Shown: positions 1 to 57,290 of the stretch, piece after piece
Position numbering within the stretch: position 1 is the stretch's first letter
How the letters are laid out: every line of letters starts with the position of its first letter
Origin: Planctomycetota bacterium
GTDB taxonomy: Bacteria; Planctomycetota; PLA2
Length of the DNA: 64,000 nucleotides
NCBI GenBank assembly: GCA_027297745.1
Contig: JAPUHK010000024.1
Span: 994-64,993 of the forward strand
Direction: 5' to 3'
Made by a program: the position numbers and the translations under genes
Notes under the pieces: model-generated
Told to the model about the DNA's origin: nothing
Databases searched by the model: none
The model's input: the letters and a program-made list of their open reading frames with translations, nothing else

Positions 1-1004
1 CGCCGCCAGCAGCAGGTCCGTCGACTCGACGCCGATGCGGGAGGCGACGGAGCCCAGCTCGACCCAGGTGACGACCAACGCCTCGCCCCGCCCGAGATCC
101 AAATGCCGGCGCTCCAGGGCGTCGGGCTCGCGCACGCGGATGCCGAGGCCGGCGATGCGCACCTCCTGTAGCTCGTCGCCGTACAGCGCGTCTCCGAAGG
201 AGAACGAGCTTCGATCTTCGTCTTGCGGCGCCGCAACCGCGACGATCTCATCGGTAGGCCAGGGCTCGCGCGCAACCCGGTCGCGTTCACGCAACACGGC
301 CGCCACGTCGATGTCGAGCGGACGGCCGCGCCGCACGACGCGCAGTACGACGTCGTCGTCCCGCAACTCGTCCTCGAGACCGTTCAGCCTGTCGATCGTG
401 TCCCTCAGCGGTCCGGCGGGCTGCAGCAGGAGGTCGCCGGGCTCGAGGCCGATCCTGCGCGCCAGTGTGGATCCCGCGTCCAATTCCGTGACGAGCAGCG
501 CGGTCTGCTTCAGCCGCAGTTGCTTGATCAGCACGGGACTCACCTCACGCGTGACGATCCCGAGCCCTTCGATCTCCCAGGACCCTGGGTGGCGCCTCTC
601 CTTTTGCGCCAGCTTGTTGCGCCTGTTCTCGGCCCAACGCAGGATGCCGAACCGCCGCCGCGCGTCCATGGACCGGTAGCGTTCCGGAGGCTCGGACACG
701 GCCTGTGCGCCGTCCGCCAGCAGCACGTGGCGTTGTGCGGCGGCCACGAGCCTGTACACGCGCCGGCGCACCTCGACGTCCTCGTGGCCGGCCGCGTGTT
801 TCAGGCGCGGCAGCGCGCTCTTGCCGAGGCGCTGGAGCGCCTGCTCGGCTGCGCTGCGTTGCGCGGGTTCCGCATGTCCCAGGCGCTCGATGAGGGCGTC
901 GATGCGCGCCCCTCCGGACTCCTGGGCGCTTGCGACGGTAGCCGCCGGCAGCAGCAGCAGCGCGGCCACGAGCGGCCGCAGGAAGGTCTGGCTGCAGGGG
1001 CGCA
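1..1004 (-). CDS. Secreted PDZ/HEAT-repeat protein, paralog C. It runs off the window edge, so the 3' end is missing.
   Basis: Manual reverse-strand translation from the ATG at 1004 gives MRPCSQTFLRPLVAALLLLPAATVASAQ (signal peptide). A HEAT-like HxxxxVRRRV motif follows. The frame stays open to position 1. It is absent from the ORF track because no stop codon lies inside the window. It parallels the genes at 1048-2109 and 2162-3109. Confidence 0.6.
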
Positions 1005-1047
1005 TCCGTCGCTTTCACGCGGACGCGGATCGCGCCCGCAACGCCCC

Positions 1048-2109
1048 CTAGTTTCCCTGCTTTTGCCGGTCCCGCAAGACCGCACCCACATCGATGCGCA
1101 CGGGCGCCCCGTCGCGCTGCAGGACGAGCATCACGTCCTCCGTCTCGGCCAGCAGCAGCAGTTCGTCGAGGTCGGCCGCGTTTCGGAGGGGCTTGCCGTT
1201 CAAGCGGCGCAGCAGGTCCCCCTTGCGCAGGCCGATGCGCTCGCCGAACGACCCCGGCTCGAGCTTGTCGACGACCCACCCGTGTCCGCCGAGGATGCCG
1301 ACGGGCGTCGACGGGCTGCGCAGCCAGACGCCCACGGCGGGCGCCCGCACGGTGGCGGCCGGGTCGTTCGCACCGACGAGGACCCACTTGATCGCGGCCT
1401 TGCCGCCCGCTTGCCGCATCACGATGCGGAATTGCTGCGGTGCGGGTTGCGCCGGGAACTTCACATCCTTCAGGAACGGGTACTGCGTCTTGAGCTGCGC
1501 TTCGGTGCCTCGCGCCTTCAGGCGACGGTTCGCTTGCGGGCCGGCGCCGGCGGGCGTGCGCGTGCCTGTGAGCGCGAACTGACCCCCGCCCACGCTGCGC
1601 AGCGCGTACTTCGTACGGGCGCCGTTCTCGTCTTTGTGCACGCCGCGCACGTTCCCCGCCAGAACCCCAAGCGCAAGCGCAGCTGCACCCCGCACGCCTA
1701 CCTGCTGGACGATTTCCAGGCGGACGCGCGCCTGATTGATCTTGTTCGGCACGCCCTGCACGATCTGCGGCCGGATGACGAGGACCATGCCGTTCCCGCC
1801 CACCTGCAGGACGGTGTCGGGGTCCCGTTGCGGCTGCGGCCGGGGGTAAGGAGGCTCACCGTCGATGAGCGTGATCAGGCGTTGCACGCGGCGGCGCACT
1901 TCGGCGTCCCTGTGGTGCAGCGCTTTGCGCAGGGCGGGCAGCGCTTCCTCGCCGCGCGCCAGCAGCCGGTCCTCGGCCGCGCCGCGTTCGGCGGGATCGG
2001 GGTGGCCCAGGGCCGCGATCAGATCTTCGGGGGGGGCGTCCTTGCCTGCCGCGTCCGCGACGCCGGTTGCGAGCAGAAGCGCCGGCGCCAACGCGAACAG
2101 GAAACGCAT
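1048..2109 (-). CDS. Secreted PDZ-domain protein with an N-terminal HEAT-like repeat, paralog B.
   Basis: MRFLFALAPALLLATGVADA is a signal peptide. A HEAT-like segment (HHRDAEVRRRVQRL) follows. The C-terminal PDZ-like region reads GILGGHGWVVDKLEPGSFGERIGLRKGDLLRRLNGKPL. The ATG at 2109 is an internal Met of the track ORF. Confidence 0.65.
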   Translation of the reverse strand: MRFLFALAPALLLATGVADAAGKDAPPEDLIAALGHPDPAERGAAEDRLLARGEEALPALRKALHHRDAEVRRRVQRLITLIDGEPPYPRPQPQRDPDTVLQVGGNGMVLVIRPQIVQGVPNKINQARVRLEIVQQVGVRGAAALALGVLAGNVRGVHKDENGARTKYALRSVGGGQFALTGTRTPAGAGPQANRRLKARGTEAQLKTQYPFLKDVKFPAQPAPQQFRIVMRQAGGKAAIKWVLVGANDPAATVRAPAVGVWLRSPSTPVGILGGHGWVVDKLEPGSFGERIGLRKGDLLRRLNGKPLRNAADLDELLLLAETEDVMLVLQRDGAPVRIDVGAVLRDRQKQGN

Positions 2110-2161
2110 GCCATCTACCTCCCGGCCTGCCGAGAGGCCTGGGCCGAAGGCTCTAGTTTCC

Positions 2162-3109
2162 CTAGTCTTGCGACTTCCGCAAGGCTGCGGCCACATCGAT
2201 CTTGCGAGGCCTTGCGCGGCGTACGATTTCGAGCTCGAGGCCCTTGCGCATGATGCGCTCGTCGTTGAGGTCGAGCGCCCTGGAGTCGTCCAGCGTCTCG
2301 CCGTTGAGCCTGACGATCACGTCGTGGCGGCGCAGGCCCGCGCGCGCGGCCGGAGAGCCGCGCAGGACCTCCGTGACGATGTAGCCGGCGCCTTCCGGGA
2401 GCTCCAGGTGGTAGGCCAGCTCCCGGGAGGGCCGTTGCAGCCGCACGCCGAAGTGTCCCAGCGCGAGCCCCCTCGGCAGTCGGCCCGTGATGCGGATCAG
2501 CCCCTCGCCCTCGAAGCGCTTACCCCCATCCGCCACGCGGGCGGGCCGTTCCAGGCCGATGCCCAGAAAGCTGAAGCGCTTCAGGAACGGGTGCTTTTTC
2601 TGCAGCGCTGCCAGCGTGCCCGAGTCGGTGATGCGGCGCGTCTTACCGTCACGGCCGGCCACGCCGGCGTCGAGCTTGTAGACGCCGCCGCCGTCGCTGA
2701 TCAGGCGGTAGTCGATGCGCTCGCCGGACTCGGGGTCGCGGAAGCTGCCTTCCATGGTCTCCGCCGTGACGCCCGGCTTGTTCCCGATCACGATGCGCAC
2801 GCCACCGCTGAAGACGTGCGTGCCTACGGGGCGGAAGCCGCGCAGGATGCGTTCGATCTGGGTGCGCTCCTCCGGGCTCGCCTCGCGCAACGCCGCGCGC
2901 AGCGGTTTCAGCGCAGGGCGGCCGATGGCGGCCAGCCTGCGTTCGGCTTCCGTGCGCTTGAGCGCATCGCGGTGCCGAAGCTGCTCGATCAGCGTGCGGA
3001 TCTCCTCGGTCTTTGCAGCCGCGGGGTCCGGCGCGGGTTGCGGTTCGTCCTGGGCCAGCGCGGCGTGCGCGGTCCAGAGGATCAGGAGCAGAAGAATGGG
3101 ATAGCGCAT
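2162..3109 (-). CDS. Secreted PDZ-domain protein with an N-terminal HEAT-like repeat, paralog A.
   Basis: Signal peptide MRYPILLLLILWTAHAALA. HEAT-like segment LRHRDALKRTEAERRLAAIG. C-terminal PDZ GAGYIVTEVLRGSPAARAGLRRHDVIVRLNGETL. Its ATG lies 1 nt downstream of the anti-sigma stop codon. Confidence 0.7.
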   Translation of the reverse strand: MRYPILLLLILWTAHAALAQDEPQPAPDPAAAKTEEIRTLIEQLRHRDALKRTEAERRLAAIGRPALKPLRAALREASPEERTQIERILRGFRPVGTHVFSGGVRIVIGNKPGVTAETMEGSFRDPESGERIDYRLISDGGGVYKLDAGVAGRDGKTRRITDSGTLAALQKKHPFLKRFSFLGIGLERPARVADGGKRFEGEGLIRITGRLPRGLALGHFGVRLQRPSRELAYHLELPEGAGYIVTEVLRGSPAARAGLRRHDVIVRLNGETLDDSRALDLNDERIMRKGLELEIVRRARPRKIDVAAALRKSQD

Positions 3110-3110
3110 G

Positions 3111-3911
3111 TCAATCGTTCCTGATGAAGGTGATGCCCTCGTGCTTTTTCCGGAGCTCTTCCAACGTACCCTCGTCCTCCCGGATCACGGGAGGGCCTCC
3201 CTCCAGGTTGACGAGCACGAGCTTGAAGCGGCCGTTGCCGAGCCTGAACGTGCTGGCGTAAAAGCGGGTGCCCGCGGGAAGCGCGCGCGGGAAGCTGCCG
3301 TCCTCCAGGTTTCCGCGCGCGATCGAGGAAACCACCACGCTCAGAAAGCCCGGGTCGCGTACGTTCTCAAAGGCCAACTCGAGCTGCGCGATTGTGTCGC
3401 GCACCCGGTTCAGCTGCCGGCGCTCGGAGTCCGTCAGGCGAAGGTGCTGCAGGTCGTCGAGGCGCCGTGCGAGGTCGGTCCGGTGGATGCCCGAACGCAG
3501 ATCGATCAGCTGCCCGTTGAGCTTCTCATACGGTATGGCCGGCCCGAGCTCCGCCGCCCGGCGCAAGAGCGCCTCCGTCTCTGCGAGAGTGATGGCGACT
3601 TCCGTCGGCGGAGTGTCGCCGCGTCCGAACCAGAACGCGGCAGCGTGGGTCAGCAGCAGGATCGCCGCCGCAGCCGCCAGGCCACGTACCGACCAACCGC
3701 GCAGGTTCACCGGCGGGCGTGCGCGCACCTGATCCGCCGTAAACGCCGCCTGCGTCGTCGGGAGCGCTGCGCTGAGCCGCTGCAATGCTTGCAGCTGCTC
3801 CAGCCGCTGCTGCAGCGAGGGTTCCTTGCGCAGGCGTTCCTCGAGCCGCGCGCGATCGGCGCCGGCCAGGCGTCCGTCCAGATGCAGGGAGAGCAACAGA
3901 TGATCGTTCAC
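3111..3911 (-). CDS. Anti-sigma factor with a single transmembrane helix, partner of the upstream ECF sigma factor.
   Basis: A GTG start (VNDHLLLSLHLDGRLAGADRARLEERL) overlaps the sigma stop codon as GTGA. The N-terminal LSxxLDGxL motif is typical of anti-sigma factors. There is one TM helix (GLAAAAAILLLTHAAAFWF) followed by a periplasmic domain. Confidence 0.7.
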   Translation of the reverse strand: MNDHLLLSLHLDGRLAGADRARLEERLRKEPSLQQRLEQLQALQRLSAALPTTQAAFTADQVRARPPVNLRGWSVRGLAAAAAILLLTHAAAFWFGRGDTPPTEVAITLAETEALLRRAAELGPAIPYEKLNGQLIDLRSGIHRTDLARRLDDLQHLRLTDSERRQLNRVRDTIAQLELAFENVRDPGFLSVVVSSIARGNLEDGSFPRALPAGTRFYASTFRLGNGRFKLVLVNLEGGPPVIREDEGTLEELRKKHEGITFIRND

Positions 3912-4513
3912 AGCCACTTCCTCATGCGTTCGAGCACCTTGCGCCGCGCGCGGGCCAGCCGCGTGCTCACGGTCTTCGAGCCGCAGCCGCAAACCACCGA
4001 GGCCTGCTCGTAGCTCAGGCCCTGCACGGCGCACAGCACGTAGACCTCGCGGAACTTGCGCGGCAGCGCGGCCACGGTGGCGCGCAGCGCCTCCTGCGCT
4101 TCCGACAGCACGGCCTGCTCGGCCGGACTCGGCAGCGGCGCGGGGCCGAACTGGTGCTGTTGCGCAGCGCGCTTCTGGTACTTGTCGCGCGCCGCGCGGC
4201 GCCGATAGCCGTCGAGGCACAGGTTGCGCGTGACGGCCCGGATCCAGGCGCGGAAGGGCCGCGTGGGATCGTAGGCCTCAGGCTTACGCAGCAGGCGGAA
4301 GAAGACTTCCTGCCCGATGTCCTCGGCCTGGTCGCGGTCACCCGTCATGAGCCGGGCGAGATCTACGACGCGGTCCCGCCAGCGTTCCACGAGCTCGTCG
4401 AAGGCGGAGCCGTCCCCCTGTGCCACGCGGGCGGCCAGGAACTCGTCCGGGACCGCCGGGGTGGCGTCCGACTCGCGCGCAGCCTGCATCCAGGGACTTA
4501 CGCGCCCCGGCAC
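3908..4513 (-). CDS. ECF (sigma-24 family) RNA polymerase sigma factor.
   Basis: Region-2-like FDELVERWRDRVVDLARLMTGDRDQAEDIGQEVFFRLL. Region-4 helix-turn-helix LSYEQASVVCGCGSKTVSTRLARARRKV. About 200 aa. Confidence 0.85.
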   Translation of the reverse strand: MPGRVSPWMQAARESDATPAVPDEFLAARVAQGDGSAFDELVERWRDRVVDLARLMTGDRDQAEDIGQEVFFRLLRKPEAYDPTRPFRAWIRAVTRNLCLDGYRRRAARDKYQKRAAQQHQFGPAPLPSPAEQAVLSEAQEALRATVAALPRKFREVYVLCAVQGLSYEQASVVCGCGSKTVSTRLARARRKVLERMRKWL

Positions 4514-4526
4514 GGTACTGCTCCCG

Positions 4527-5369
4527 TTACTTTTGGGCCGCCTCGAGGCGCTCCAGGAGCTGCTCGAAGCGCTTCTCGAGCCGGTCCAGGCGCTTCGTCA
4601 ACTCGCGCTCGCGCTCGGTCACCACGGCCGCCGGCTCGAGGAGGACCACCTCCCACCTGCTTGGCTTCAGCTCCCGGAACTTCCAGTGCTGCGGGCGCGA
4701 CGGTTCGCGGTCGCCCGCCTTGCGCATCTCCTTCAGCAACTCCAGGCGGTGTTCGCTGCGCAGCACGGCGGGCTCGTCGCCGGCCTTGCGCGCCTCGACC
4801 AGCGCCGCTTCTTCGCGCGCGATCCAACGCTGCAAGGGCTGGCCCCCAAAGCCGCTGTGCAGCCTGAGGCGCATGCGCGTCACCTGCTCCTGGGCCTTCT
4901 CGAGCCGGCGGCCGATGTCGTCGTAGTCGCGCCGGGGGCGCACGGGTCGCGGCGGAGCGCCCGGCTCCACCTCGACCAGCTCCATATCGACGCGCTCCTC
5001 ACGCCGCCCGCCGAGCTTGATCTCGTCCGAGATCTCCCGGGAGCCGCGGATCAGCTTGTAGCGCACGACGTCGCCCTCGTGGAAGCGGCGCACCGCCTCC
5101 ACCAGCCCCTCCGGACCCTCGATGCGGGTGCCGCCGAACTCCACCAGCACGTCGCCGGTCTTGAAGCCGGCGGCGGCTGCGGCCGATCCCTCGACCACCT
5201 CCTGGATCACTGCGCCGGACTTGACCTTCTCAGGCAGTCCGTACAGTTGCCGCAGCTCGTCGCTGGCAGGCGCGACGCTCACGCCCAAGAAGCCGGTCCG
5301 CTGCTCCTTGGCCGCCGCGGGGGCGATGGCCAGGGCCAGGATGAATAGGGGCAGGGCTCTTCCGATCAT
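4527..5369 (-). CDS. Secreted PDZ-domain protein with a C-terminal coiled coil; first gene of the sigma/anti-sigma operon.
   Basis: Signal peptide MIGRALPLFILALAIAPAAA. PDZ GAVIQEVVEGSAAAAAGFKTGDVLVEFGG. A GGAGAG ribosome-binding site precedes the ATG. It ends 14 nt upstream of the sigma start codon. Confidence 0.7.
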   Translation of the reverse strand: MIGRALPLFILALAIAPAAAKEQRTGFLGVSVAPASDELRQLYGLPEKVKSGAVIQEVVEGSAAAAAGFKTGDVLVEFGGTRIEGPEGLVEAVRRFHEGDVVRYKLIRGSREISDEIKLGGRREERVDMELVEVEPGAPPRPVRPRRDYDDIGRRLEKAQEQVTRMRLRLHSGFGGQPLQRWIAREEAALVEARKAGDEPAVLRSEHRLELLKEMRKAGDREPSRPQHWKFRELKPSRWEVVLLEPAAVVTERERELTKRLDRLEKRFEQLLERLEAAQK

Positions 5370-5529
5370 GACGCTCTCCTTCTGACCTCTCTACGACGGA
5401 AGGCCGGGGCGGAGCTAGTGATTCCCGGGGGGCAATCGCCCGCGCCCGGCGCCTCACAACGAGAGGGCCGGCCGCGGGTAAGCCATAGGGAGGTTGGAAG
5501 CGGGTTGTTAGACTCCTAGCCCCGTGAGC

Positions 5530-7149
5530 ATGACGATCCACGTTCGCAGCCCCGATCAGGACGACCGGCGCCTCGAGTTCCACAAGGCGAAGATCACGGT
5601 CGGGAGCAGCCCCATGTGCGACATCACCATCGCCGGGGACGCCGTGGCCGACGAGCAGGCGGTCCTGGTTCAGCGCGGCGACCACTTCGAGATCTTCGAT
5701 ATCGGGCGCGACGGGGCGGTGCTGGTGGGGGGCCGCCCGTGCCGGCACGGCGACGTCCTGGCGGGGCAGGAGATCTGGATCGGCGACGCGGTCTTGATGC
5801 CGCAGGCGCCCACGAAGGGAGTAGCGTTCGTGGACCGGGGAGAGGGACGCGTGACGGCCACCGTCTCGTCGACCCTCTCGAGCGTCGGCGGGACGTCCGG
5901 CGCGCCCGCCGAGCCGCGCCTGCGCCCGCTGCTCAACGAGGTCGTACGCCTGATCCACTCCATCGGCCGCAGCGAGAACATCTTCGAATCGATCCTCGAC
6001 TCCGTGTTCAGCAGCGCGCCGGTGCTGCGCGCCTTCCTCGCGCTGCGCGATCCCGAAGGCGAGCTGGTGGTCAAGGCGCACCGCAACCGGGAGCACGACG
6101 CGGACGACCAGCCGATCCAGGTCAGCCAGACGCTGGTGGGCAAGGTGCTCGACAGTGGAGAGGCGCTGCTCACCTCGGACGCGGAGGGGGACCCCAACCT
6201 GAACCTGGCGCAGTCGATCCAGAGCCTGCGCATCAAGGCCGCCATCTGCGTACCGCTGGTGGTCGACGGCAAGGTGATCGGGCTTCTGTACGGCGACAAC
6301 CGCGAGCAGCCGGGGATCCTCAACCGCGAGAACCTCGCTTTCCTGAGCGCCCTGGCCGGAGTGGCGGCCGTCGCCGTCGAGAAGTTCCGCTTGCTCGAGG
6401 AATACGACCAAAAGCTGCAGATCGAGCAGGCGCTGGCCATCGCGCGCTCCATTCACCGCAACTTCCTGCCCGCGGGACCGCCGCAGATAGAGGGCTTCGA
6501 CGTCTACGGCGACAGCGAGTCGTGCGACGCGACGGGCGGCGACTATTACGACTTCTTCCCGCTGAGCGAGGACCGCCTGGGCGTCGTGATCGCGGACGTG
6601 GCCGGGCACGGGATCGGCCCCGCCCTGCTGATGGCCAGCGTGCGCGCCACGCTGCGGGCGCTGCTGGTGGACGGGGCGTCGCTGAACGACCTCATGTTCC
6701 GCCTGAACGAGCTGATCAGCGCCGACGTCCGGGACGGCCGCTTCATCACGCTGTTCTTCGGCCTCTTCGACCGCAAGGAGGGGCGGCTGCAGCACATCGG
6801 CGCGGGCCACACGCCCACGATCTGGGTTCGCGGCGGCGGCGGCGCGCCGCGGCAGATCCGCAGCGGGGGCCCCCCGCTGGGCGTTATGAGCGGCGTGCGC
6901 TACGAGGTGGGCGAGGAGATCGCCTTCGAGCCCGGCGACGTCTTCCTGTTCTCCACGGACGGCATCCACGAGGCCATCGATCCGGCCGGCAAGCATTTCG
7001 GCCTGGAGCGGCTGGAGCAGAACCTCAAGGATCACGCGTCAGAGAGCGCTCAGGAGATGGTGGCCGCGGTCCACACGGAGCTGAACGTCCACGTAGACGG
7101 CGAGCCCCTGCGCGACGACACGACATTGGTGGTCGTGAAGATCGTCTGA
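5530..7149 (+). CDS. FHA-GAF-PP2C protein: a serine/threonine phosphatase of the SpoIIE/RsbU type.
   Basis: N-terminal FHA domain (RLEFHKAKITVGSSPMCDITIAGDAVADEQAVLVQRGDHFEIFD). Central GAF-like region. C-terminal PP2C motifs GGDYYDF, VIADVAGHG and DGRFITLFFGLFD. A GTG alternative start lies at 5524. Confidence 0.8.
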   Translation: MTIHVRSPDQDDRRLEFHKAKITVGSSPMCDITIAGDAVADEQAVLVQRGDHFEIFDIGRDGAVLVGGRPCRHGDVLAGQEIWIGDAVLMPQAPTKGVAFVDRGEGRVTATVSSTLSSVGGTSGAPAEPRLRPLLNEVVRLIHSIGRSENIFESILDSVFSSAPVLRAFLALRDPEGELVVKAHRNREHDADDQPIQVSQTLVGKVLDSGEALLTSDAEGDPNLNLAQSIQSLRIKAAICVPLVVDGKVIGLLYGDNREQPGILNRENLAFLSALAGVAAVAVEKFRLLEEYDQKLQIEQALAIARSIHRNFLPAGPPQIEGFDVYGDSESCDATGGDYYDFFPLSEDRLGVVIADVAGHGIGPALLMASVRATLRALLVDGASLNDLMFRLNELISADVRDGRFITLFFGLFDRKEGRLQHIGAGHTPTIWVRGGGGAPRQIRSGGPPLGVMSGVRYEVGEEIAFEPGDVFLFSTDGIHEAIDPAGKHFGLERLEQNLKDHASESAQEMVAAVHTELNVHVDGEPLRDDTTLVVVKIV

Positions 7150-7329
7150 CCGCGTCGCAGGCTCGCGACGGGAGTGGGAGCGGGATCGGGAGAGGAAGCG
7201 AGCGATGGTTCGGGCAGACGTGCGGCCCTGCCGGCGCCCGACGAGGCGTGGAGACGAACGGGCCCGGCTGGGTCTACGCTCCCGTTCCCCCTCCTGCTCC
7301 CGGGCCAAGCCCTCTTCAGAGGCGCGGCC

Positions 7330-7560
7330 CTACTTCTTCGCCTTGGTCTTGGGAGCCTGCTTGGTGGGGGCCGGCTCCTGCTTTTCGGGGCACTCGCACC
7401 AGCCCACGAGGTACCCGCAGTCCAGGCAGAGATCGAAGAGCTCGTGGTCGCAGACGACGCAGCGATAGACGGAGCCCGGGTCCTCATACGCGGTGGCGCC
7501 GCAGTCCTCGCACCGCATCTTCGGGCGGGCAGTCAAACGACGGTAATTGATTTCGTCCAT
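7330..7560 (-). CDS. Small cysteine-rich, zinc-ribbon-like protein.
   Basis: Four metal-ligand pairs (CEDC, CVVC, CLDC, CEC) within 76 aa, followed by a Lys-rich tail. There is no clear SD sequence. The first codons are AT-rich for this genome, so an internal start at MRCEDC is possible. Confidence 0.4.
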   Translation of the reverse strand: MDEINYRRLTARPKMRCEDCGATAYEDPGSVYRCVVCDHELFDLCLDCGYLVGWCECPEKQEPAPTKQAPKTKAKK

Positions 7561-7621
7561 AGGAGTTAGGGCGACGCGGCCCAGCCGCGGCGAAACATTC
7601 TATTCTACCGCCTGGGGGCGT

Positions 7622-8479
7622 TCAGTGCGAGGCCTTCCGGGTCGCCGCGGCGGCCCGGTCGACCAACCTCGCGTCCTTTTCCAGCCCCTGGCCGCGCAGG
7701 TAGCGGGCCCATGCCCCGTAGCGCTCGTGTGTGTCCAACTGCAGGGCCCACAAGAGCTTGGAGCGACAAACCGGGCACAGCAACAGGGGCCGCCGATGCT
7801 CCTCGTCACGGGTCGCCACCCCGTTCATGAGGCAGCGGTAGAAGGTGCAATGTTTCATCGCCAGAACGTGCCCGGCTTCATGGACCGCCATGGCCAAGAG
7901 CCGGCGGCGGGAGCCCGCGGGATCTGCGCTCTGCCAGACCCGGGCCGTGCTGACGATGGCCACCCCCAAGCGCTCCGACCCCCAGCCTTGGACGTAGTTC
8001 AGTCCCTTGGAGTAGAGGTCCCGGTCAGTCACGGCCACCGTGATCAGGGCGTCCTTGGGTCGGCGGGCGGCCACCGCGCGGGCCAGGCCGGTGATGTGCA
8101 CCTGGCGGCGCCGGCGGTTGTACGCGCGCAGCGGGATCGCCCGTGGCTCGAGCAGCTTGGCGGGCCGGCCGTAGAAGGCCGCCAGGCTCGCGCGCACTCG
8201 TTCAGGTAAGCCGGGATCTGTGGCCGGGCGGGTCAGCATGGGCACGACATAGAGCGTCGTGCGGGCGGCGGGCGGCCGGGCCGCGGACGCCTTGTATTCG
8301 GCAAAGGTCTGGCCCTCCTCGCGGTACTGGTCGAGCCACTCGCCGTCCTTCGGCTGGCCGAGGTGCTTCCAGACGCCCGGCGGCACAGGCACGTCCGCGC
8401 GCTTCCCGCCGTACGGGACGAGGAGCAGGAGGCACACTGCGACCGCCTTCATGAGCTGCCCGCGCGCGCGGGCGCTCAT
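7622..8479 (-). CDS. Secreted archaemetzincin-like zinc metallopeptidase (M54 family).
   Basis: HEAGHVLAMKHC followed by CTFYRCLMNG and CPVCRSKL matches the archaemetzincin signature HExxHxxGxxHC plus a Cys4 site. Signal peptide MSARARGQLMKAVAVCLLLLVPYGG. An alternative ATG lies at 8452. The remainder of the 956-aa track ORF is antisense noise. Confidence 0.75.
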   Translation of the reverse strand: MSARARGQLMKAVAVCLLLLVPYGGKRADVPVPPGVWKHLGQPKDGEWLDQYREEGQTFAEYKASAARPPAARTTLYVVPMLTRPATDPGLPERVRASLAAFYGRPAKLLEPRAIPLRAYNRRRRQVHITGLARAVAARRPKDALITVAVTDRDLYSKGLNYVQGWGSERLGVAIVSTARVWQSADPAGSRRRLLAMAVHEAGHVLAMKHCTFYRCLMNGVATRDEEHRRPLLLCPVCRSKLLWALQLDTHERYGAWARYLRGQGLEKDARLVDRAAAATRKASH

Positions 8480-8512
8480 GGTACCCGGCGTACCCGTCCG
8501 GGGGCCCTCCGT

Positions 8513-9658
8513 ATGATCGGTGGCTTGGCCAAGTTGCAAGCGTGTCCCCGCTGCCGCGCGCTGTTGGAGGCGGGCACCAAGAAGTGCCCGTACTGCAGCA
8601 CGCAGGTACAGAAGGCGGCCGTTCTCACGGCCCACGTCCCCGGCGACCTGGGCGACGCCGGCGCCGCGTATCCGCGCGCCGGCCGTGTGCTGATCGGCGT
8701 GTTCGTGGCGCTGTACCTGCTCATGCTCTACTTCGACCCCAACCGGGATGCGGGGATCCAGGGATGGACCACGCGGCCGTCGCATGCGGCCACATACGCC
8801 TTCGGAACGAGCAACCTGTTCGGCATCCGCGCATGCGGCCAGTCCTGGCGCCTCGTGTCGGCTCTGTTCATGCACCTGAGCTTGCTGCACCTGGCCATGA
8901 ACTCGGTCGCCGTGCTGATCCTGGCGCCGCTCGTGGTAGCGGTGCTCGGGCTCAAACGTGCGGGGGTGTTGTTCCTGTTGACCGGCCTGGCGGGCGCGGC
9001 GGCAAGCCATCTGGCGGGCTACGGCGGCGCGGGCGCATCCGGGGCGGTGTGCGGCGCCATAGGAGCGCTGTTGGCCTTCGGCAAACGGGAGGCGGGCCTG
9101 CGCGGCGCGGTCCTGATGCGCGCGATGAAGCAGTGGGTCATGATCCTGGTGCTGTGGACGGTGGTGGCGCTGGCCGCCAACATGAACATCGACCACATCG
9201 CCCACTGGGTCGGATTCGCCGCCGGGCTGGCGCTGGGTTGGTGGGGTGAAGGCGGCAGGGCCGGGCGGCTCAGCGGCGCGCCGCTCTGGAACGCGCTTTT
9301 CTACGCGGGCGCCGCGGCCGTCGTGGCCACGGCGTTCTTCGTGGGCGTGCAGGTGCAGCGCAGCTTTCACGCCCGGGACGTGGCGTTCTACAACCGGGGC
9401 TCCTTCCAGGCCTTGCAGAGGATCCAGCTCAGGCTTCACGGTGGGGGGGAACCTCTCGCGGCGAAGCTGGATCTGCCCGACCCGCCTCCGGGTTCGGAAG
9501 AGCTCGACCAGGCCTTGCGCGAGGCGTGGCAGGCCGTCCGCGAGAGTCCTTCGGCCGCCGCGGCGGTCTCCTCCTTCGACGCCGCCGAGCTGCTCTGGCA
9601 AGCTTGGAGAATCGAGAGCATGTGCCGGTACGGCCCGTGCGCCAACCCGGCGTCGTAA
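8513..9658 (+). CDS. Rhomboid-family intramembrane serine protease with an N-terminal zinc ribbon.
   Basis: N-terminal CPRCRALLEAGTKKCPYCS. Multiple TM helices. Catalytic-type GASGAVCGAIGAL (GxSG) and a downstream His in a TM segment (IAHWVGFAAGLALG). Start taken at the internal Met MIGGLAKLQ. Confidence 0.75.
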   Translation: MIGGLAKLQACPRCRALLEAGTKKCPYCSTQVQKAAVLTAHVPGDLGDAGAAYPRAGRVLIGVFVALYLLMLYFDPNRDAGIQGWTTRPSHAATYAFGTSNLFGIRACGQSWRLVSALFMHLSLLHLAMNSVAVLILAPLVVAVLGLKRAGVLFLLTGLAGAAASHLAGYGGAGASGAVCGAIGALLAFGKREAGLRGAVLMRAMKQWVMILVLWTVVALAANMNIDHIAHWVGFAAGLALGWWGEGGRAGRLSGAPLWNALFYAGAAAVVATAFFVGVQVQRSFHARDVAFYNRGSFQALQRIQLRLHGGGEPLAAKLDLPDPPPGSEELDQALREAWQAVRESPSAAAAVSSFDAAELLWQAWRIESMCRYGPCANPAS

Positions 9659-9754
9659 CGCCTCCGGCCGCTGAGGGGCGTTCATCCGCACCACACAGAG
9701 GCGTATACTGGCGCGCGGCGTCCGAGAGCCGCGTTGCCGGCAAGGGAGGGAAGC

Positions 9755-10612
9755 ATGAGTGAGTATGCACACCCCGGGATGATCGTCTCTACGCAGTGGT
9801 TGGCGGATCATCTCGACGACCCGGGCCTGCGCGTGATCGAGTCGGACGAGGACATCACGCTCTACCACTCCGGGCACATTCCCGGCGCGGTCATGGTCGA
9901 TTGGCAGAGCGAGCTGCAGGACCCCGTCGTGCGCGACTACGTCAACAAGGAGAACTTCGAGAAGTTGATGCGTGCGAAGGGGATCGGGCGCAACGACACG
10001 CTCGTGTTCTACGGCGACAACAGCAACTGGTGGGCCTGCTACGCGCTGTGGGCCTTCAAGATGTTCGGCCACGAGAACATGAAGATCCTCAACGGCGGGC
10101 GCCGGAAGTGGATCGACGAAGGGCGGCCGACATCGACGGACGAACCCGCCTATCCCGCCACGGACTACGAGGCGACGGGTCCGGACTACACGTGGCGCGC
10201 CTTCGCCGATGAGGTTCGCGAGTACGTCGAGGCGGACGGGCAGCTCGTGGACGTGCGCTCGCCCGGCGAATACACGGGCGAGCTGTTGCACATGCCCAAG
10301 TACCCGCAGGAGGGCGCGTTGCGCGCCGGACACATCCCCGGCGGCCGCAGCTGCCCGTGGTCGCGCGCCTGCAACGAGGACGGGACCTTCAAGTCCGCCG
10401 AGGAGCTGAAAGCTCTCTACGAGGGTGAGCTCGGGTTCGACGGCAAGCAAGAAGTGATCGCCTACTGCCGCATCGGCGAGCGCTCCAGCCACACGTGGTT
10501 CGTGCTGAGCTACCTGCTCGGCTACGGCAACGTGCGTAACTACGACGGTTCGTGGACCGAGTGGGGTAACCGCGTCGGCGCTCCCATCGTCAAAGGCGAT
10601 CAGATCCGCTAG
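9755..10612 (+). CDS. Two-domain rhodanese: thiosulfate / 3-mercaptopyruvate sulfurtransferase.
   Basis: A GGGAGGG ribosome-binding site precedes [11 protein letters not shown]. Tandem rhodanese domains. Active-site Cys in CRIGERSS (CRxGx[R/T] loop). Confidence 0.85.
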
Positions 10613-30682: not shown

Positions 30683-32320
30683 CTAGCCTGACCCTGGCGG
30701 CTTGATGCCGGCCCACCGCTCCAGGTAGGGCAGCACGACCTCACTCACCTCTTCCCGCGGGCGGCTGCCGAGGTAGCGTGCCGCCTCGCGCGAGCCCGCC
30801 TCGGGGTCGATCTGCACGAGCGCGCCGATGGCGAAGAACTGATCCCCGGCCCTCGGATGGGCGAGGAAGTCGAGCAGGATCCGTTCCGCCCTTGGGCCGC
30901 CCATCTTGCCCAGCGCGCCCAGAAGATACGGCCGCACGCCGTCCCACCCGGGGCGCAGCAGCTTGTCCTCGAAGTGAGGCGCGCCCGCGGGCTCCCGCAG
31001 TTCCCCAAGCGCGCCGGCGGCGCTATAGAAGAGACCGGCGTCCTCCGACTCCGCGACGAGGTCGAGCAGGTAGCGGCGCGTCTCCGGCGTGTCCGCAGCG
31101 CCCATGGCGCGCAGGATCGTGTAGCGCGCGGAGCGGGGGAATGCCGGATCACCGGCCGCCGTGATGAGGTGCGCCTCGTACCCGGGCGACCAGGCCTCGC
31201 GCAGGAGGCGCTCGAACCACGCGCCTTGCCTGCCTCCGCGCAGCAAGGCCAGCAGCGCGAGCAAGCCCTGCTCGCCGTGGCCGTTCAGCTTCTCGATGGC
31301 TTCGAGCGCCTCCTCGTCCAGCTTGTCTTGCTGATGCTGGTTGCGCACGGCCTCCTCTGCCTCGAGCGCTGCCTGGAGCGCCGGCGCGGGGACCTTCAAG
31401 GCCGCCGCGGCGCGCTGAAGCTTCGAGTCCCGCGTGCGCGGGCGGCCGCGCTGCTTGGCCGCTTGCTGTTTTGCAACCGGCCTCTCAGCCGAGGCGGCAC
31501 GCGCGGCGGCGAGCTGCTCGACTAGAACACGTTCGCGCTCCCGCGCCGCCTCCAGTTCCCGGTGCAGGTCAGGGCCGTGCGGCGCGCGCGCGACCCGCTG
31601 CGCCGGCTCCGCGTCCGACCTTCCGGGCAACGCGGCGCCAATGCCCACGCCGACGATTCCCGTGGCGGCGACGGCGGCGGTAACGATGGCGGCGGTCTTG
31701 TACTTCATGACTTCTCCAAGGATGAGCTGGGACGACGCGTGCGCGCAGTCGGCCAGGAACCAGGGCACCGCGAGCAGGGGAAGGGCGAGCCAGGGTGCGA
31801 GCGAGCCGAGCAGGAGCGTGCGCGCACGCTGGAGCCGCTTCTTGACGGCGGACTGCGTAATGCCGAGCAGCCCGGCTACCTCGTTTGTCGTGAGCCCTTC
31901 GAAGTAGTGCAGCACGACCGGGTCGCGGTAGCCTGCCGCAAGCCGGTCCACGCCGTCGCGCAGGCGACGGAACTCCTCGGCGCGCATGGCCGCCGCCGCG
32001 GGCGTCGGCGCCTGCGGCAAGTGTGCGAGCCGCCGGGAAAGCTCGTGTTGCCGCCGGTGTTGCGCCTTGTGCCGGTACGCGATGCGCACGACCGCCGTGA
32101 CGAGCCAGGGCATGACCGGGGCGTCGAGCGGCCCCCCGCGTTTGTGCAGTAGCGAGAGGTAGGCGGTGTGGACCGCGTCCTCAGCCTCGTCCGGCGAGCC
32201 GATGCGGCGCGCCACCGCGAGCAGCTTCGGCCGCGTCCGGCGCACGACCTCCTCGGCCGCCTCCTCGTCCGCGTCCCGCAGGTAGCGGTCGACGAGATCT
32301 TCCAGCGTCTCCCTGGCCAT
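30683..32320 (-). CDS. ECF sigma factor fused to a transmembrane segment and a C-terminal HEAT/armadillo-like repeat domain.
   Basis: N-terminal sigma regions 2 and 4 (DAVHTAYLSLLHKRGG..., LTTNEVAGLLGITQSAVKKRLQRART). A TM helix (AAIVTAAVAATGIVGVGIGAAL). A coiled coil and HEAT-like repeats. It is a single uninterrupted 545-aa frame. Confidence 0.65.
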   Translation of the reverse strand: MARETLEDLVDRYLRDADEEAAEEVVRRTRPKLLAVARRIGSPDEAEDAVHTAYLSLLHKRGGPLDAPVMPWLVTAVVRIAYRHKAQHRRQHELSRRLAHLPQAPTPAAAAMRAEEFRRLRDGVDRLAAGYRDPVVLHYFEGLTTNEVAGLLGITQSAVKKRLQRARTLLLGSLAPWLALPLLAVPWFLADCAHASSQLILGEVMKYKTAAIVTAAVAATGIVGVGIGAALPGRSDAEPAQRVARAPHGPDLHRELEAARERERVLVEQLAAARAASAERPVAKQQAAKQRGRPRTRDSKLQRAAAALKVPAPALQAALEAEEAVRNQHQQDKLDEEALEAIEKLNGHGEQGLLALLALLRGGRQGAWFERLLREAWSPGYEAHLITAAGDPAFPRSARYTILRAMGAADTPETRRYLLDLVAESEDAGLFYSAAGALGELREPAGAPHFEDKLLRPGWDGVRPYLLGALGKMGGPRAERILLDFLAHPRAGDQFFAIGALVQIDPEAGSREAARYLGSRPREEVSEVVLPYLERWAGIKPPGSG

Positions 32321-32418
32321 GGCACCCCCATAGTGCCTGCCGCGGGCGCGCGGTGACACACGTTAAGGGTCGCCTCCCCGGGCCGGACGCCGCGAGGCGA
32401 AGTCCAAGGGGCTAGGAG

Positions 32419-36202: not shown

Positions 36203-36338
36203 GGGCCGGGCGGCGAGTCTACCACCGTACGACCGTGCGGGAGCAGGCGCAGGACTCCAGGGCGCCTCGCGGGGCGCCGATAGTGGAATAGAATTACGGC
36301 GTCCGTTTTCGGACGGGACGGCGTTAAGCAAGGCAAGC

Positions 36339-56395: not shown

Positions 56396-56630
56396 TTCTG
56401 ATCTCACTTTGCCCGACCCCTCCGGCGGCGACCGCCGGAGTCCGAGCGAGAGGGCGTGAGAGCCGGCCCCACGAGGGAGAGACCAACACGCGGTAGTCCG
56501 ATGCTAGGAACGGGTATCACTTGGAGGGGGGCCTGAGAGACGCAACTTGAGACTTCAGCCGGAGCGTCTCGTTGTGAGGCGGCTCGATCGGAAACGCCGG
56601 CGGTCTGCCCCACAAACCGTGCGGGGCCGC

Positions 56631-57278
56631 TCAATTGACGGCCGGCACCCATGCCGTGGGCACGTGGCACTCGTGGCAGTTGTCGACGAAGCCCAGCGGG
56701 ATGTGGGGGGGATTGGTGGTGTTGTTCCGGTCGTCCACGTGGCACGTGACGCACTCGGTGTCCACGGGGATGAAGTTGCCGACCCGCGCGCCCGGGTGGC
56801 AGCGGTAGCAGGCCACCAACGTGTGGGCGCCGAGCAGCGGGAAGCGCGTCCGGTCGTGGAGCGCGATCTGGCCCACGGGGCGCCAGGTCTGCTCGGTGTG
56901 GCAGCGGGTGCAGTCCTTGTCCAGGTCGCCGTAGTGGTAGTCCTCGTGGCAGCCCGTGCAGCCCTGCGAGTGGAAGATCGCCACAGGCCCGCGGTCGTTG
57001 TGGCAACGCAGACATTGCGCCTGCTCATGAGCCCCGTTGAGAGCGAAGCCGGTGTTGGCCAGGTGGTTGAACTTGAAGTCGCTCTTGAGCTTGTTCCAGT
57101 CACCGCCCACGTGGCACAGCTGACAGTCGGCCGGGAACGAGTCGTGCGGCAGGACCGGTCCGAAACCCGCCCACCAACGGTGCTGCTTGCCGGTCAGCGG
57201 GCGCGCGGCGGCGCAGGCCAACAGGATCGCGCTCAGGAGCGCGATCGCGATCGGGCGTCTACGGAATCGGAATCGCAT
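56631..57278 (-). CDS. Periplasmic heptaheme c-type cytochrome.
   Basis: Signal peptide MRFRFRRRPIAIALLSAILLACAAA. Seven CxxCH motifs (CQLCH, CLRCH, CTGCH, CTRCH, CYRCH, CVTCH, CHECH) in about 215 aa. A GAGAG ribosome-binding site lies 12 nt after the OMP stop codon. Confidence 0.85.
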   Translation of the reverse strand: MRFRFRRRPIAIALLSAILLACAAARPLTGKQHRWWAGFGPVLPHDSFPADCQLCHVGGDWNKLKSDFKFNHLANTGFALNGAHEQAQCLRCHNDRGPVAIFHSQGCTGCHEDYHYGDLDKDCTRCHTEQTWRPVGQIALHDRTRFPLLGAHTLVACYRCHPGARVGNFIPVDTECVTCHVDDRNNTTNPPHIPLGFVDNCHECHVPTAWVPAVN

Positions 57279-57290
57279 GGGTATCAACTC

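Follow-up and report, generated by a model that had tools for sequence, protein, structure and literature searches.

A GAF-PP2C phosphatase with a degenerate FHA-fold domain, encoded beside an ECF sigma locus in a Planctomycetota bacterium

In a 64-kb stretch of DNA from a Planctomycetota bacterium (hereafter, the window) a gene for a three-domain protein phosphatase lies back to back with a short operon that includes an ECF sigma factor. The question raised by this locus is what such a phosphatase senses, on what it acts, and whether the neighbouring sigma factor has any part in its function. Phosphatases combining a sensor domain with a PP2C domain are a large and little-studied class of bacterial signalling proteins, and regulation in Planctomycetota is almost unexplored. 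Our literature searches found no functional study of any FHA-GAF-PP2C protein, nor is there mention in the ECF classification paper of a group linked to PP2C or PDZ proteins.

Gene, domains and catalytic site

The phosphatase gene and the parts of its product are the following:

5530–7149, plus strand: phosphatase coding sequence, 539 aa plus stop (GC3 0.93, homologs from E = 0, Pfam matches)
5524, plus strand: alternative GTG start, giving 541 aa
5530–5832, plus strand: N-terminal FHA-fold domain without the pThr-binding residues, residues 1–101 (Pfam, ortholog profile, AF2 beta-sandwich, residue table)
5833–5919, plus strand: probably disordered, low-confidence and poorly conserved linker, residues ~102–130
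5920–6315, plus strand: GAF sensor domain, residues ~131–262 (Pfam GAF/GAF_2/GAF_3, invariant columns, AF2 model)
6325–6465, plus strand: single long alpha-helix from GAF to PP2C, residues 266–312 (DSSP on the AF2 model)
6466–7146, plus strand: SpoIIE/RsbU-family PP2C domain (Pfam SpoIIE, alignment to SpoIIE and Rv1364c, invariance, Foldseek)
6541–6543, 6595–6597, 6958–6960 and 7114–7119, plus strand: metal-binding Asp codons D338, D356, D477 and D529/D530
residues 362–380 and 385–397: predicted PP2C switch helices

The reading frame is confirmed as genuine, and so is its architecture of FHA-fold domain, GAF domain, long helix and SpoIIE-family PP2C domain; the FHA, GAF and PP2C order originally proposed was borne out by the Pfam matches and the AF2 model. 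GC3 is 0.93–0.94 over the frame from 5524 (GTG) or 5530 (ATG) to 7149, and a protein database search returned hundreds of full-length homologs, the top one 95% identical. The start codon reads as ambiguous: support for ATG 5530 comes from the alignment of the N-termini and from the 95%-identical protein of the database, whereas orthologs begin with GTG at the position equivalent to 5524. The Pfam scan was run on the 541-aa translation, while residue numbers of domains and aspartates follow the ATG numbering. Three orthologs, none above 52% identity and one of them from a locus also included in the comparison below, were found in a scan of species-representative genomes; relatives among the matches listed from a metagenome scan had 30–42% identity and were of no help for synteny. 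An Rfam scan of 5000–7700 found no RNA family.

The catalytic domain is matched by Pfam SpoIIE (PF07228) at residues 349–540 of the 541-aa form with 159.1 bits (E = 1.7e-46, cut-off 25), over positions 2–191 of the 192 in the profile. The PP2C metal-binding aspartates, on which the original prediction hinged, are all present, invariant in a 20-sequence subset of the orthologs and kept in at least 98% of all 56. The four positions align to the SpoIIE motifs SGD, SDGMGNG, SDG and EDD, D356 lying within a DVAGHG motif; their SpoIIE equivalents we take to be D610, D628 (plus G629), D746 and D795. The PP2C region of the AF2 model has pLDDT values of ~85–95, and Foldseek matches it to SiaA (6k4e, TM(target) 0.81, E = 2.9e-14), with Rv1364c, SpoIIE, RssB and RsbX also found. 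Conservation and fold point to a phosphatase that is probably catalytically active. M. tuberculosis Rv1364c, P. aeruginosa SiaA and RssB, and B. subtilis SpoIIE, the best matches of the catalytic domain in sequence and fold, differ from our protein in their sensor domains (PAS, HAMP/membrane, receiver and membrane, respectively), and Rv1364c, unlike it, also has kinase and STAS domains of its own. The protein on which SiaA acts, SiaC, is not of the STAS type.

The GAF domain is recognized by Pfam GAF at 151–286 of the 541-aa form (54.6 bits, cut-off 22.4) and by GAF_2 and GAF_3 (54.6 and 44.9 bits), and it is modelled as a mixed alpha/beta domain at residues 131–256, preceded by a stretch with pLDDT below 50 at residues 104–129. 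Its invariant motifs TSDAExDP and YGDNRExPG are candidates for a pocket. RsbU and RsbP of B. subtilis and RsbZ of C. difficile dephosphorylate the STAS protein RsbV, leading to the general stress response. The phosphatase studied here is like them in having a SpoIIE-family PP2C domain with a complete metal site and an N-terminal sensor joined to it by a long helix. RsbZ likewise has GAF domains, and helical linkers are a general signal-transmitting element of sensor-PP2C phosphatases (PMC12143880).

The N-terminal FHA-fold domain

The Pfam FHA model (PF00498) matches residues 24–86 of the 541-aa form marginally, with 23.1 bits against a cut-off of 20.7, and the Yop-YscD_cpl model reaches 22.1 bits, which is under its own cut-off. 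Residues 1–101 form a beta-sandwich in the AF2 model, and among solved structures a profile of the ortholog domains matched the FHA domains of OdhI and GarA best (E = 2.4e-9, ~89 residues aligned). The same profile retrieved 40,099 proteins at E ≤ 1e-3 from a library of 1.84 billion, the top of the list being made up mainly of long proteins that the profile hits at several distinct places; at the profile level this confirms membership of the superfamily and does not delimit the degenerate clade.

FHA domains contact phosphothreonine (pThr) through residues of a few short motifs. These motifs are GR, SxxH and NG (PMC3162421). In OdhI and GarA, pThr-dependent regulators of Actinobacteria, the residues concerned are the Arg of GR, the Ser and His of SRRH, and the Ser, Asn and Thr of S-L-N-G-T. 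At these positions the clade of our protein has S/A, D/A, Q, E, G and V, and the protein itself S, A, Q, R, G and V: G25-S26 stands for GR, A40..Q43 for SxxH, and R60-D61-G62-A63-V64 where S-x-N-G-T is canonical, the three motifs reading GS, AxxQ and GA. Among the 56 members of the ortholog clade the canonical Arg is kept in one, Ser in four, His in three, and Asn and Thr in none, while every pThr-binding residue is intact in all 40 distant FHA-GAF-PP2C homologs. Given these replacements across the clade, the description of this domain as phosphothreonine-binding is not supported, and neither is a coupling to Ser/Thr kinases.

The domain is nevertheless conserved, with a mean column identity of 58% and invariant G25, C30, G59, G68, E81, W83 and G85 in the domain alignment. 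Non-canonical phospho-binding is still conceivable from the sequence despite the lost residues. A precedent for pThr-independent action is given by MxiG and YscD-type proteins of type III secretion, in which an FHA fold likewise has incomplete binding motifs; MxiG is a documented FHA fold without pThr binding (PMC3162421). Unlike our protein, a soluble phosphatase, they belong to the membrane rings of a secretion machine, and the homology is limited to the fold. The canonical FHA-GAF-SpoIIE phosphatases of Acidobacteriota, Aminicenantes and other Planctomycetota (P0061–P0105) have the same domain order, a length of ~550–560 aa and 28–35% identity; they keep GR, SxxH and S-x-N-G-T (40/40), which the query clade has replaced. 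Their database name is 'SpoIIE family protein phosphatase', and they are uncharacterised. Two clades of one architecture, with and without the pThr-binding residues, offer a clean natural comparison, and for annotation the lesson is that an "FHA" match implies neither a phosphothreonine reader nor a link to a kinase.

Divergent neighbours and the intergenic region

Upstream of the phosphatase the following features were found:

3111–3911, minus strand: single-pass anti-sigma, 266 aa (weak anti-sigmaE N-terminal match)
3908–4513 (or 4489), minus strand: ECF sigma factor (Sigma70_r2, r4_2, TIGR02937)
4527–5369, minus strand: secreted PDZ plus helical-tail protein, 280 aa (Pfam PDZ_2/PDZ_6; signal peptide)
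5392–5401, plus strand: TACGACGGAA motif, 22 nt from the PDZ gene start codon, unique in the window
5506–5514, plus strand: TGTTAGACT, extended -10-like element, followed after 9 nt by GTG 5524 and after 15 nt by ATG 5530

The phosphatase gene had been described as divergent from the ECF sigma operon across a shared 154-bp region. The orientation and the length are correct (5370–5523; 160 bp if the start is ATG 5530), but the operon opens with the PDZ gene and not with sigma, which follows 14–37 nt downstream; next comes the anti-sigma gene, whose start overlaps the sigma stop codon. The anti-sigma is class-I-like and transmembrane. Its ortholog at locus L006 has a faint zf-HC2 match, and it co-varies with sigma across the orthologous loci.

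The PDZ gene, called or aligned, is divergent from the phosphatase in every locus with a readable upstream region (10/12), and 9 of the 12 orthologous loci carry the sigma/anti-sigma module. L001, L171 and L173 keep the phosphatase and the PDZ gene with no sigma/anti-sigma pair at the locus, which could sit elsewhere in those genomes; in a simple NJ tree, built without support values, they are spread over two branches. Neither a PDZ nor an ECF sigma gene adjoins the distant canonical-FHA homologs in the loci compared. The PDZ gene is the constant genomic partner of the phosphatase, the sigma module is probably an optional passenger behind it, and the phosphatase–sigma link is not conserved across these loci. 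A gene that lies beside a sigma operon does not necessarily control the sigma factor concerned. The PDZ pairing, together with the sigma module in 9/12 loci, could represent a functional link, although adjacency is hard to interpret either way because the whole region is syntenic in the lineage.

TGTTAGACT is the sole TGnTAGACT on the plus strand of the window. A similar element precedes an in-frame GTG by 5–9 nt in all 10 orthologous loci compared (window included), being exact in 7 of them, with the variants CGT-TAGACT, TGG-TAGGAT and TGT-TACACT; the spacing from hexamer to start is longer in the window (9 or 15 nt) than in the orthologs (5–7 nt). This pattern suggests that the phosphatase gene is transcribed from a promoter of its own into an mRNA with no leader or hardly any, and the placement of TGnTAGACT immediately ahead of GTG codons offers a helpful starting point for working out the rules of promoters and leaderless mRNAs in Planctomycetota. 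Standard scans for sigma-70 promoters and terminators found nothing; the sigma-70 scan misses the conserved element because the latter has no recognisable -35, which the scan needs.

The full TACGA motif of TACGACGGAA recurs in L001, L003, L007 and L173, with related forms in L006, L171 and L172. Its distance from the TAGACT-type hexamer is a constant 22 nt in 6/10 loci, sigma-less ones included, while in the window the two are ~100 nt apart; it is possibly the promoter of the PDZ operon, or else an operator. A minus-strand autoregulatory ECF promoter composed of TACGACGGAA and GTTAGAC (-35 'AAC', -10 'CGTC') was considered and rejected, given a variable spacing of 18–21 nt or more, the distance between the motifs in the window and their persistence in sigma-less loci. 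An inverted repeat at 5439–5478, GC-rich and unconserved in other loci, was taken as chance.

Substrate and possible roles of the phosphatase

Pfam scans of the 64-kb window found no STAS, RsbW-type or Hanks-kinase (Pkinase) gene, and six-frame jackhmmer searches of the window and of 10 orthologous loci (L174 excluded) gave neither a STAS nor an RsbW gene; the search for anti-anti-sigma partners suggested earlier had no match in the window. The closest FHA-less GAF-PP2C relatives, Planctomycetota proteins of 35–37% identity, are encoded within PP2C-RsbW-STAS operons (L014, L016, L017, L019, L079, L101 and L111), which upholds the likeness to RsbU/SpoIIE partner-switching phosphatases suggested at the outset. 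At L009 a canonical FHA-GAF-PP2C homolog clusters with a STAS gene, the only such case among the canonical neighbourhoods compared. Unlike RsbU, RsbP and RsbZ, our protein and its orthologs have no rsbV/rsbW-type genes beside them and carry an extra N-terminal FHA-fold domain, and the neighbouring sigma factor is of the ECF type (group 4), with its own anti-sigma, and not of the SigB type. Because the window and the orthologous loci hold no STAS or RsbW gene, we infer the substrate class by extrapolation from paralogs at 35–37% identity.

On balance we favour the view that the gene encodes a catalytically competent cytoplasmic SpoIIE/RsbU phosphatase under GAF control, whose FHA domain is degenerate, whose gene is transcribed from its own promoter and whose substrate is encoded elsewhere. 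The GAF domain would sense a ligand or state, and the 47-residue helix would pass this signal to the PP2C switch helices, the kind of control presumed for RsbU, RsbP and the GAF-PP2C protein RsbZ. The FHA-fold domain, devoid of pThr-binding residues, would most likely serve in docking or autoregulation independently of phosphorylation. As substrate we think most likely of a phosphorylated switch protein, STAS-type (RsbV-like) or similar, from elsewhere in the genome, and the adjacent ECF sigma/anti-sigma pair is not the likely one. The conserved extended -10 promoter would drive the gene, with an mRNA that is leaderless or nearly so. Because its FHA domain has lost the pThr-binding residues and the sigma link is unconserved, the phosphatase ranks as an unexceptional representative of a family that is common and uncharacterised, and these findings leave current concepts unchanged.

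The alternatives differ from this reading in what is docked, dephosphorylated or controlled. According to the original prediction, the FHA domain would dock on a Thr-phosphorylated protein and a Hanks-type kinase pathway would act through the PP2C domain on the activity of the adjacent ECF sigma. The FHA fold, the canonical FHA domains of the distant homologs and the position of the phosphatase next to and divergent from the sigma operon in 9/12 loci agree with this, but this protein and nearly all 56 clade members have other residues in place of the pThr-binding Arg, Ser, His and Asn, the window has no Pkinase, STAS or RsbW gene, sigma has its own anti-sigma, three of the 12 loci have the phosphatase without sigma, and canonical-FHA homologs elsewhere do not adjoin ECF sigmas. 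Moreover, a co-transcribed membrane anti-sigma with a periplasmic part and periplasmic PDZ proteins point to an envelope input. The proposed coupling of kinase signalling to sigma is unsupported and we regard it as very improbable. Even less credible, to the point of being almost negligible, is a pseudo-phosphatase or adaptor like E. coli RssB, which would bind a partner with no dephosphorylation: structures of the RssB family stand among the top matches both in sequence and in fold, but the metal aspartates and the GHG motif are invariant across orthologs and a full PP2C domain is modelled with high confidence.

It is unlikely, though less so, that the phosphatase and the envelope module of PDZ, plus sigma where present, make up one functional unit, in which the short divergent control region would co-regulate the cytoplasmic phosphatase and the periplasmic PDZ protein; the FHA-like domain might also bind the anti-sigma at its cytoplasmic part, or another membrane component. 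The pair is kept in all 10 of the 12 loci with a readable upstream region despite insertions and deletions at either outer flank, which involve the sigma module at one end and POR or E1_dh genes at the other, the intergenic region is just 46–170 bp, and two conserved motifs are held at a fixed 22-nt spacing in 6/10 loci. On the other hand, the PDZ protein is in a different compartment because of its signal peptide, adjacency may be inherited and not selected given the region-wide synteny, and the motifs of the window do not keep the fixed spacing. Another reading, which we consider improbable, is that in this Planctomycetota lineage an ancestral pThr-reading FHA domain turned into a docking module independent of phosphorylation, with the new invariant residues C30, G59, E81 and W83, which might tether the GAF-gated phosphatase to a component of the adjacent envelope-stress unit, for example at the cytoplasmic N-terminus of the anti-sigma. 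If true, such tethering would give an ECF sigma factor a cytoplasmic phosphatase input of an undescribed kind.

Domain architecture and catalytic site

The codon positions of the phosphatase ORF show the pattern expected of a genuine gene (GC3 0.93–0.94, in surroundings with about 70% G+C), and the domains originally assigned to it are present. In Pfam, the SpoIIE-type PP2C domain scores 159 bits (E 1.7e-46) and the GAF domain 54.6 bits. The N-terminal FHA domain barely exceeds its threshold (23.1 vs 20.7 bits), and the FHA-like 'YscD' model of type III secretion scores it about equally. No specific NCBIfam family was found for the protein, which gave only partial matches to SiaA, SpoIIE, RssB and NifA-type GAF regions. 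The AlphaFold2 model, made from 20 orthologs (mean pLDDT 79; residues numbered from ATG 5530), divides the product as follows:

5524 (GTG) or 5530 (ATG) to 7149, + strand: phosphatase ORF
residues 1–101: beta-sandwich
residues 104–129: disordered stretch
residues 131–256: GAF domain
residues 266–312: single unbroken helix
residues 323–538: PP2C domain

Structurally, the model best matches PP2C domains, namely those of SiaA, Rv1364c, SpoIIE, RssB and RsbX, with which the sequence matches concur; the protein belongs to both the SpoIIE/PP2C and the GAF family. The metal-binding Asp residues, named beforehand as the point on which the original prediction would stand or fall, are all present: GGD338YYD, AD356VAGHG, TD477G and RD529D530 align to the SpoIIE motifs SGD, SDGMGNG, SDG and EDD. 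These positions are kept in at least 98% of the 56 sequences of the ortholog clade and are invariant in a 20-sequence subset. Judged from its sequence, the phosphatase should be an active enzyme and not an RssB-like pseudo-enzyme.

The FHA-like domain

An N-terminal profile of 13 orthologs matches OdhI and GarA in their FHA domains (E 2.4e-9) as well as about 40,000 proteins in a large protein library, so that the assignment of the FHA fold is sound. Three motifs, GR, SxxH and NG, mediate the binding of phosphothreonine (pThr) by FHA domains (PMC3162421). These were compared in an alignment of OdhI, GarA, the 56 members of the ortholog clade (46–95% identity) and 40 distant homologs (28–35% identity) sharing the same three-domain architecture.

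Retention of pThr-binding residues (ortholog clade; distant homologs)
Arg of GR: 1/56; 40/40
Ser of SxxH: 4/56; 40/40
His of SxxH: 3/56; 40/40
Asn of NG: 0/56; 40/40
Thr after NG: 0/56; 40/40

The protein of the window has G25-S26, A40..Q43 and R60-D61-G62-A63-V64 at the corresponding positions. The domain predicted to bind phosphothreonine thus has the fold, but the motifs are replaced in it and in nearly all members of its clade, and by its sequence it would fall outside the functional definition of a pThr-binding FHA module. The domain has stayed well conserved, carries its own set of invariant residues (G25, C30, G59, G68, E81, W83 and G85) and is therefore probably functional, but the loss of the motifs makes a canonical pThr reader very unlikely. 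MxiG, a documented FHA fold without pThr binding (PMC3162421), provides a precedent. The loss also removes the main support for the suggested coupling to Ser/Thr kinases, and no kinase gene was found within the 64-kb window.

Gene neighbourhood and the divergent intergenic region

The phosphatase gene is indeed divergent from the sigma operon across 154 bp, but the first gene of this operon encodes a PDZ protein rather than the sigma factor itself:

4527–5369, − strand: secreted PDZ protein, 280 aa, divergent neighbour of the phosphatase
3908–4489/4513, − strand: ECF sigma, behind the PDZ gene
3111–3911, − strand: single-pass anti-sigma, 266 aa, its start overlapping the sigma stop
5392–5401: motif TACGACGGAA, 22 nt from the PDZ start
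5506–5514, + strand: TGTTAGACT, matching TGnTAGACT

The anti-sigma combines an N-terminal anti-sigma-domain-like segment with one membrane span, and the sigma is further accompanied by periplasmic proteins whose PDZ domains are of the HtrA/DegS type. A sigma factor with its own membrane anti-sigma and such companions suggests that the input comes from the envelope, not from a cytoplasmic phosphatase. Three tandem secreted HEAT+PDZ paralogs lie 3' of the anti-sigma gene, within 1–3109 (<1–1005, 1048–2109 and 2162–3109, −); in related loci a single homolog (about 270 aa) precedes Memo, and Memo, Zincin_1 and 4HBT are missing from the window.

Twelve distinct orthologous loci were compared (the window, L001/2, L003/4, L005 (=L012), L006, L007, L011, L013, L171, L172, L173 and L174), all relatives being from metagenome assemblies. 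An orthologous divergent PDZ gene (29–41% identity) is found in all ten loci whose upstream region was called or aligned. Sigma, anti-sigma and a PDZ-like third gene behave as one unit, present in 9 of the 12, the sigma orthologs scoring 222–250 bits in the eight loci found by sequence search. At L001, L171 and L173 the unit is missing and Memo or other genes come immediately after the PDZ gene; the sigma may have a copy elsewhere in those genomes. The sigma-less loci fall on two separate branches of a crude NJ tree without support values, a pattern suggestive of two or more losses. Synteny extends to the wider region (Zincin_1, Memo, a 76-aa Cys-rich protein, Peptidase_M54, rhomboid), and the adjacency of phosphatase and sigma is therefore by itself of little weight. 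An ECF sigma never occurs beside the distant canonical-FHA homologs in the neighbourhoods examined.

The gene of the Cys-rich protein (7330–7560, −), which has no Pfam family, is convergent with that of the phosphatase; its orthologs in seven related loci (96–115 bits) mostly adjoin Peptidase_M54. The archaemetzincin-like Peptidase_M54 gene of the window (7628–8452, −), 43% identical to the L007 copy, is buried in a spurious 956-aa ORF (7622–10492) and so is missed by simple ORF lists.

TGnTAGACT occurs once per strand in the 64-kb window, and an element of this kind precedes an in-frame GTG by 5–9 nt in all ten loci compared, the window included (exact in seven, close variants in three). It has the geometry of a putative extended −10 promoter giving a leaderless mRNA. 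In the window TGTTAGACT lies 9 nt from GTG 5524 and 15 nt from ATG 5530, the codon aligning with the orthologs' start, so that the leader would measure 0 to about 8 nt. The TACGACGGAA motif recurs in most loci, sigma-less ones among them, and thus gives no evidence of autoregulation by the ECF sigma. Scans of the phosphatase locus for standard promoters, terminators and Rfam families gave no hits. The intergenic region also holds a GC-rich inverted repeat (5439–5478, 12-nt arms, 16-nt loop), unconserved in other loci. The sole other TGnTAGACT (36216–36224, −) lies about 340 nt upstream of the start (35877) of a Kelch/Big_5 gene and may be a further promoter of this kind.

Partner-switching relatives and proposed mechanism

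Pfam scans of all genes called in the window detected neither a STAS nor an RsbW-type protein, and six-frame jackhmmer searches (seeds RsbV, SpoIIAA and one locus STAS protein; RsbW and SpoIIAB) found none there or in ten orthologous loci. The phosphatase does not belong to any partner-switching module encoded at this locus. Its nearest non-orthologous relatives, Planctomycetota GAF-PP2C proteins of about 420 aa without FHA (35–37% identity), are encoded in PP2C-RsbW-STAS operons at L014, L016, L017, L019, L079, L101 and L111 according to the same searches, and a STAS gene clusters with one canonical FHA-GAF-PP2C gene (L009). By analogy with these relatives, a phospho-STAS protein encoded elsewhere in the genome would be the substrate expected at the family level.

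The domain structure, the catalytic site, the motif loss and the synteny pattern are observed, the steps of the mechanism inferred. We lean, though only slightly, towards the following mechanism as a whole. The GAF domain would respond to some ligand or state, and the long helix would pass the change to two PP2C switch helices (predicted at 362–380 and 385–397) controlling metal binding and PP2C activity. The protein may thereby work like RsbU, RsbP and RsbZ, for which, as for other sensor-PP2C proteins, such a helix/switch scheme has been proposed as general (PMC12143880). The FHA-like domain may add a phospho-independent contact, either intramolecular or with a partner, and the active phosphatase would dephosphorylate its switch protein.

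The FHA-GAF-SpoIIE architecture is already known, being abundant in databases though uncharacterised; it is frequent among Planctomycetota, Acidobacteriota and Aminicenantes known from metagenomes, under the labels 'SpoIIE family protein phosphatase' or 'RsbU', and our literature search found no study of it. The new element is modest and consists of the loss of the pThr motifs across the clade together with the constant PDZ pairing.

The L009 cluster (2577–9674, +, an Aminicenantes MAG) contains, head to tail, STAS, two TLC/MFS (ATP/ADP-translocase-like) transporters and the canonical FHA-GAF-PP2C gene, which suggests partner-switching control tied to transporters. Elsewhere in the window, a second ECF-type sigma of 558 aa (30683–32359, −) has a long C-terminal region containing HEAT repeats fused to it. 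The stretch 9734–30183 holds rhodanese, NifU-like and SUF Fe-S assembly genes (SufB/D, SufC, two cysteine desulfurases) and an NADH dehydrogenase (Nuo) operon. A cluster at 53567–63378 (−) encodes large MtrC/MtrF-like multihaem cytochromes with cytochrome c7/c3 repeats (946, 218 and 692 aa), a 617-aa protein without a family match and a Fer4 + Pyr_redox protein.
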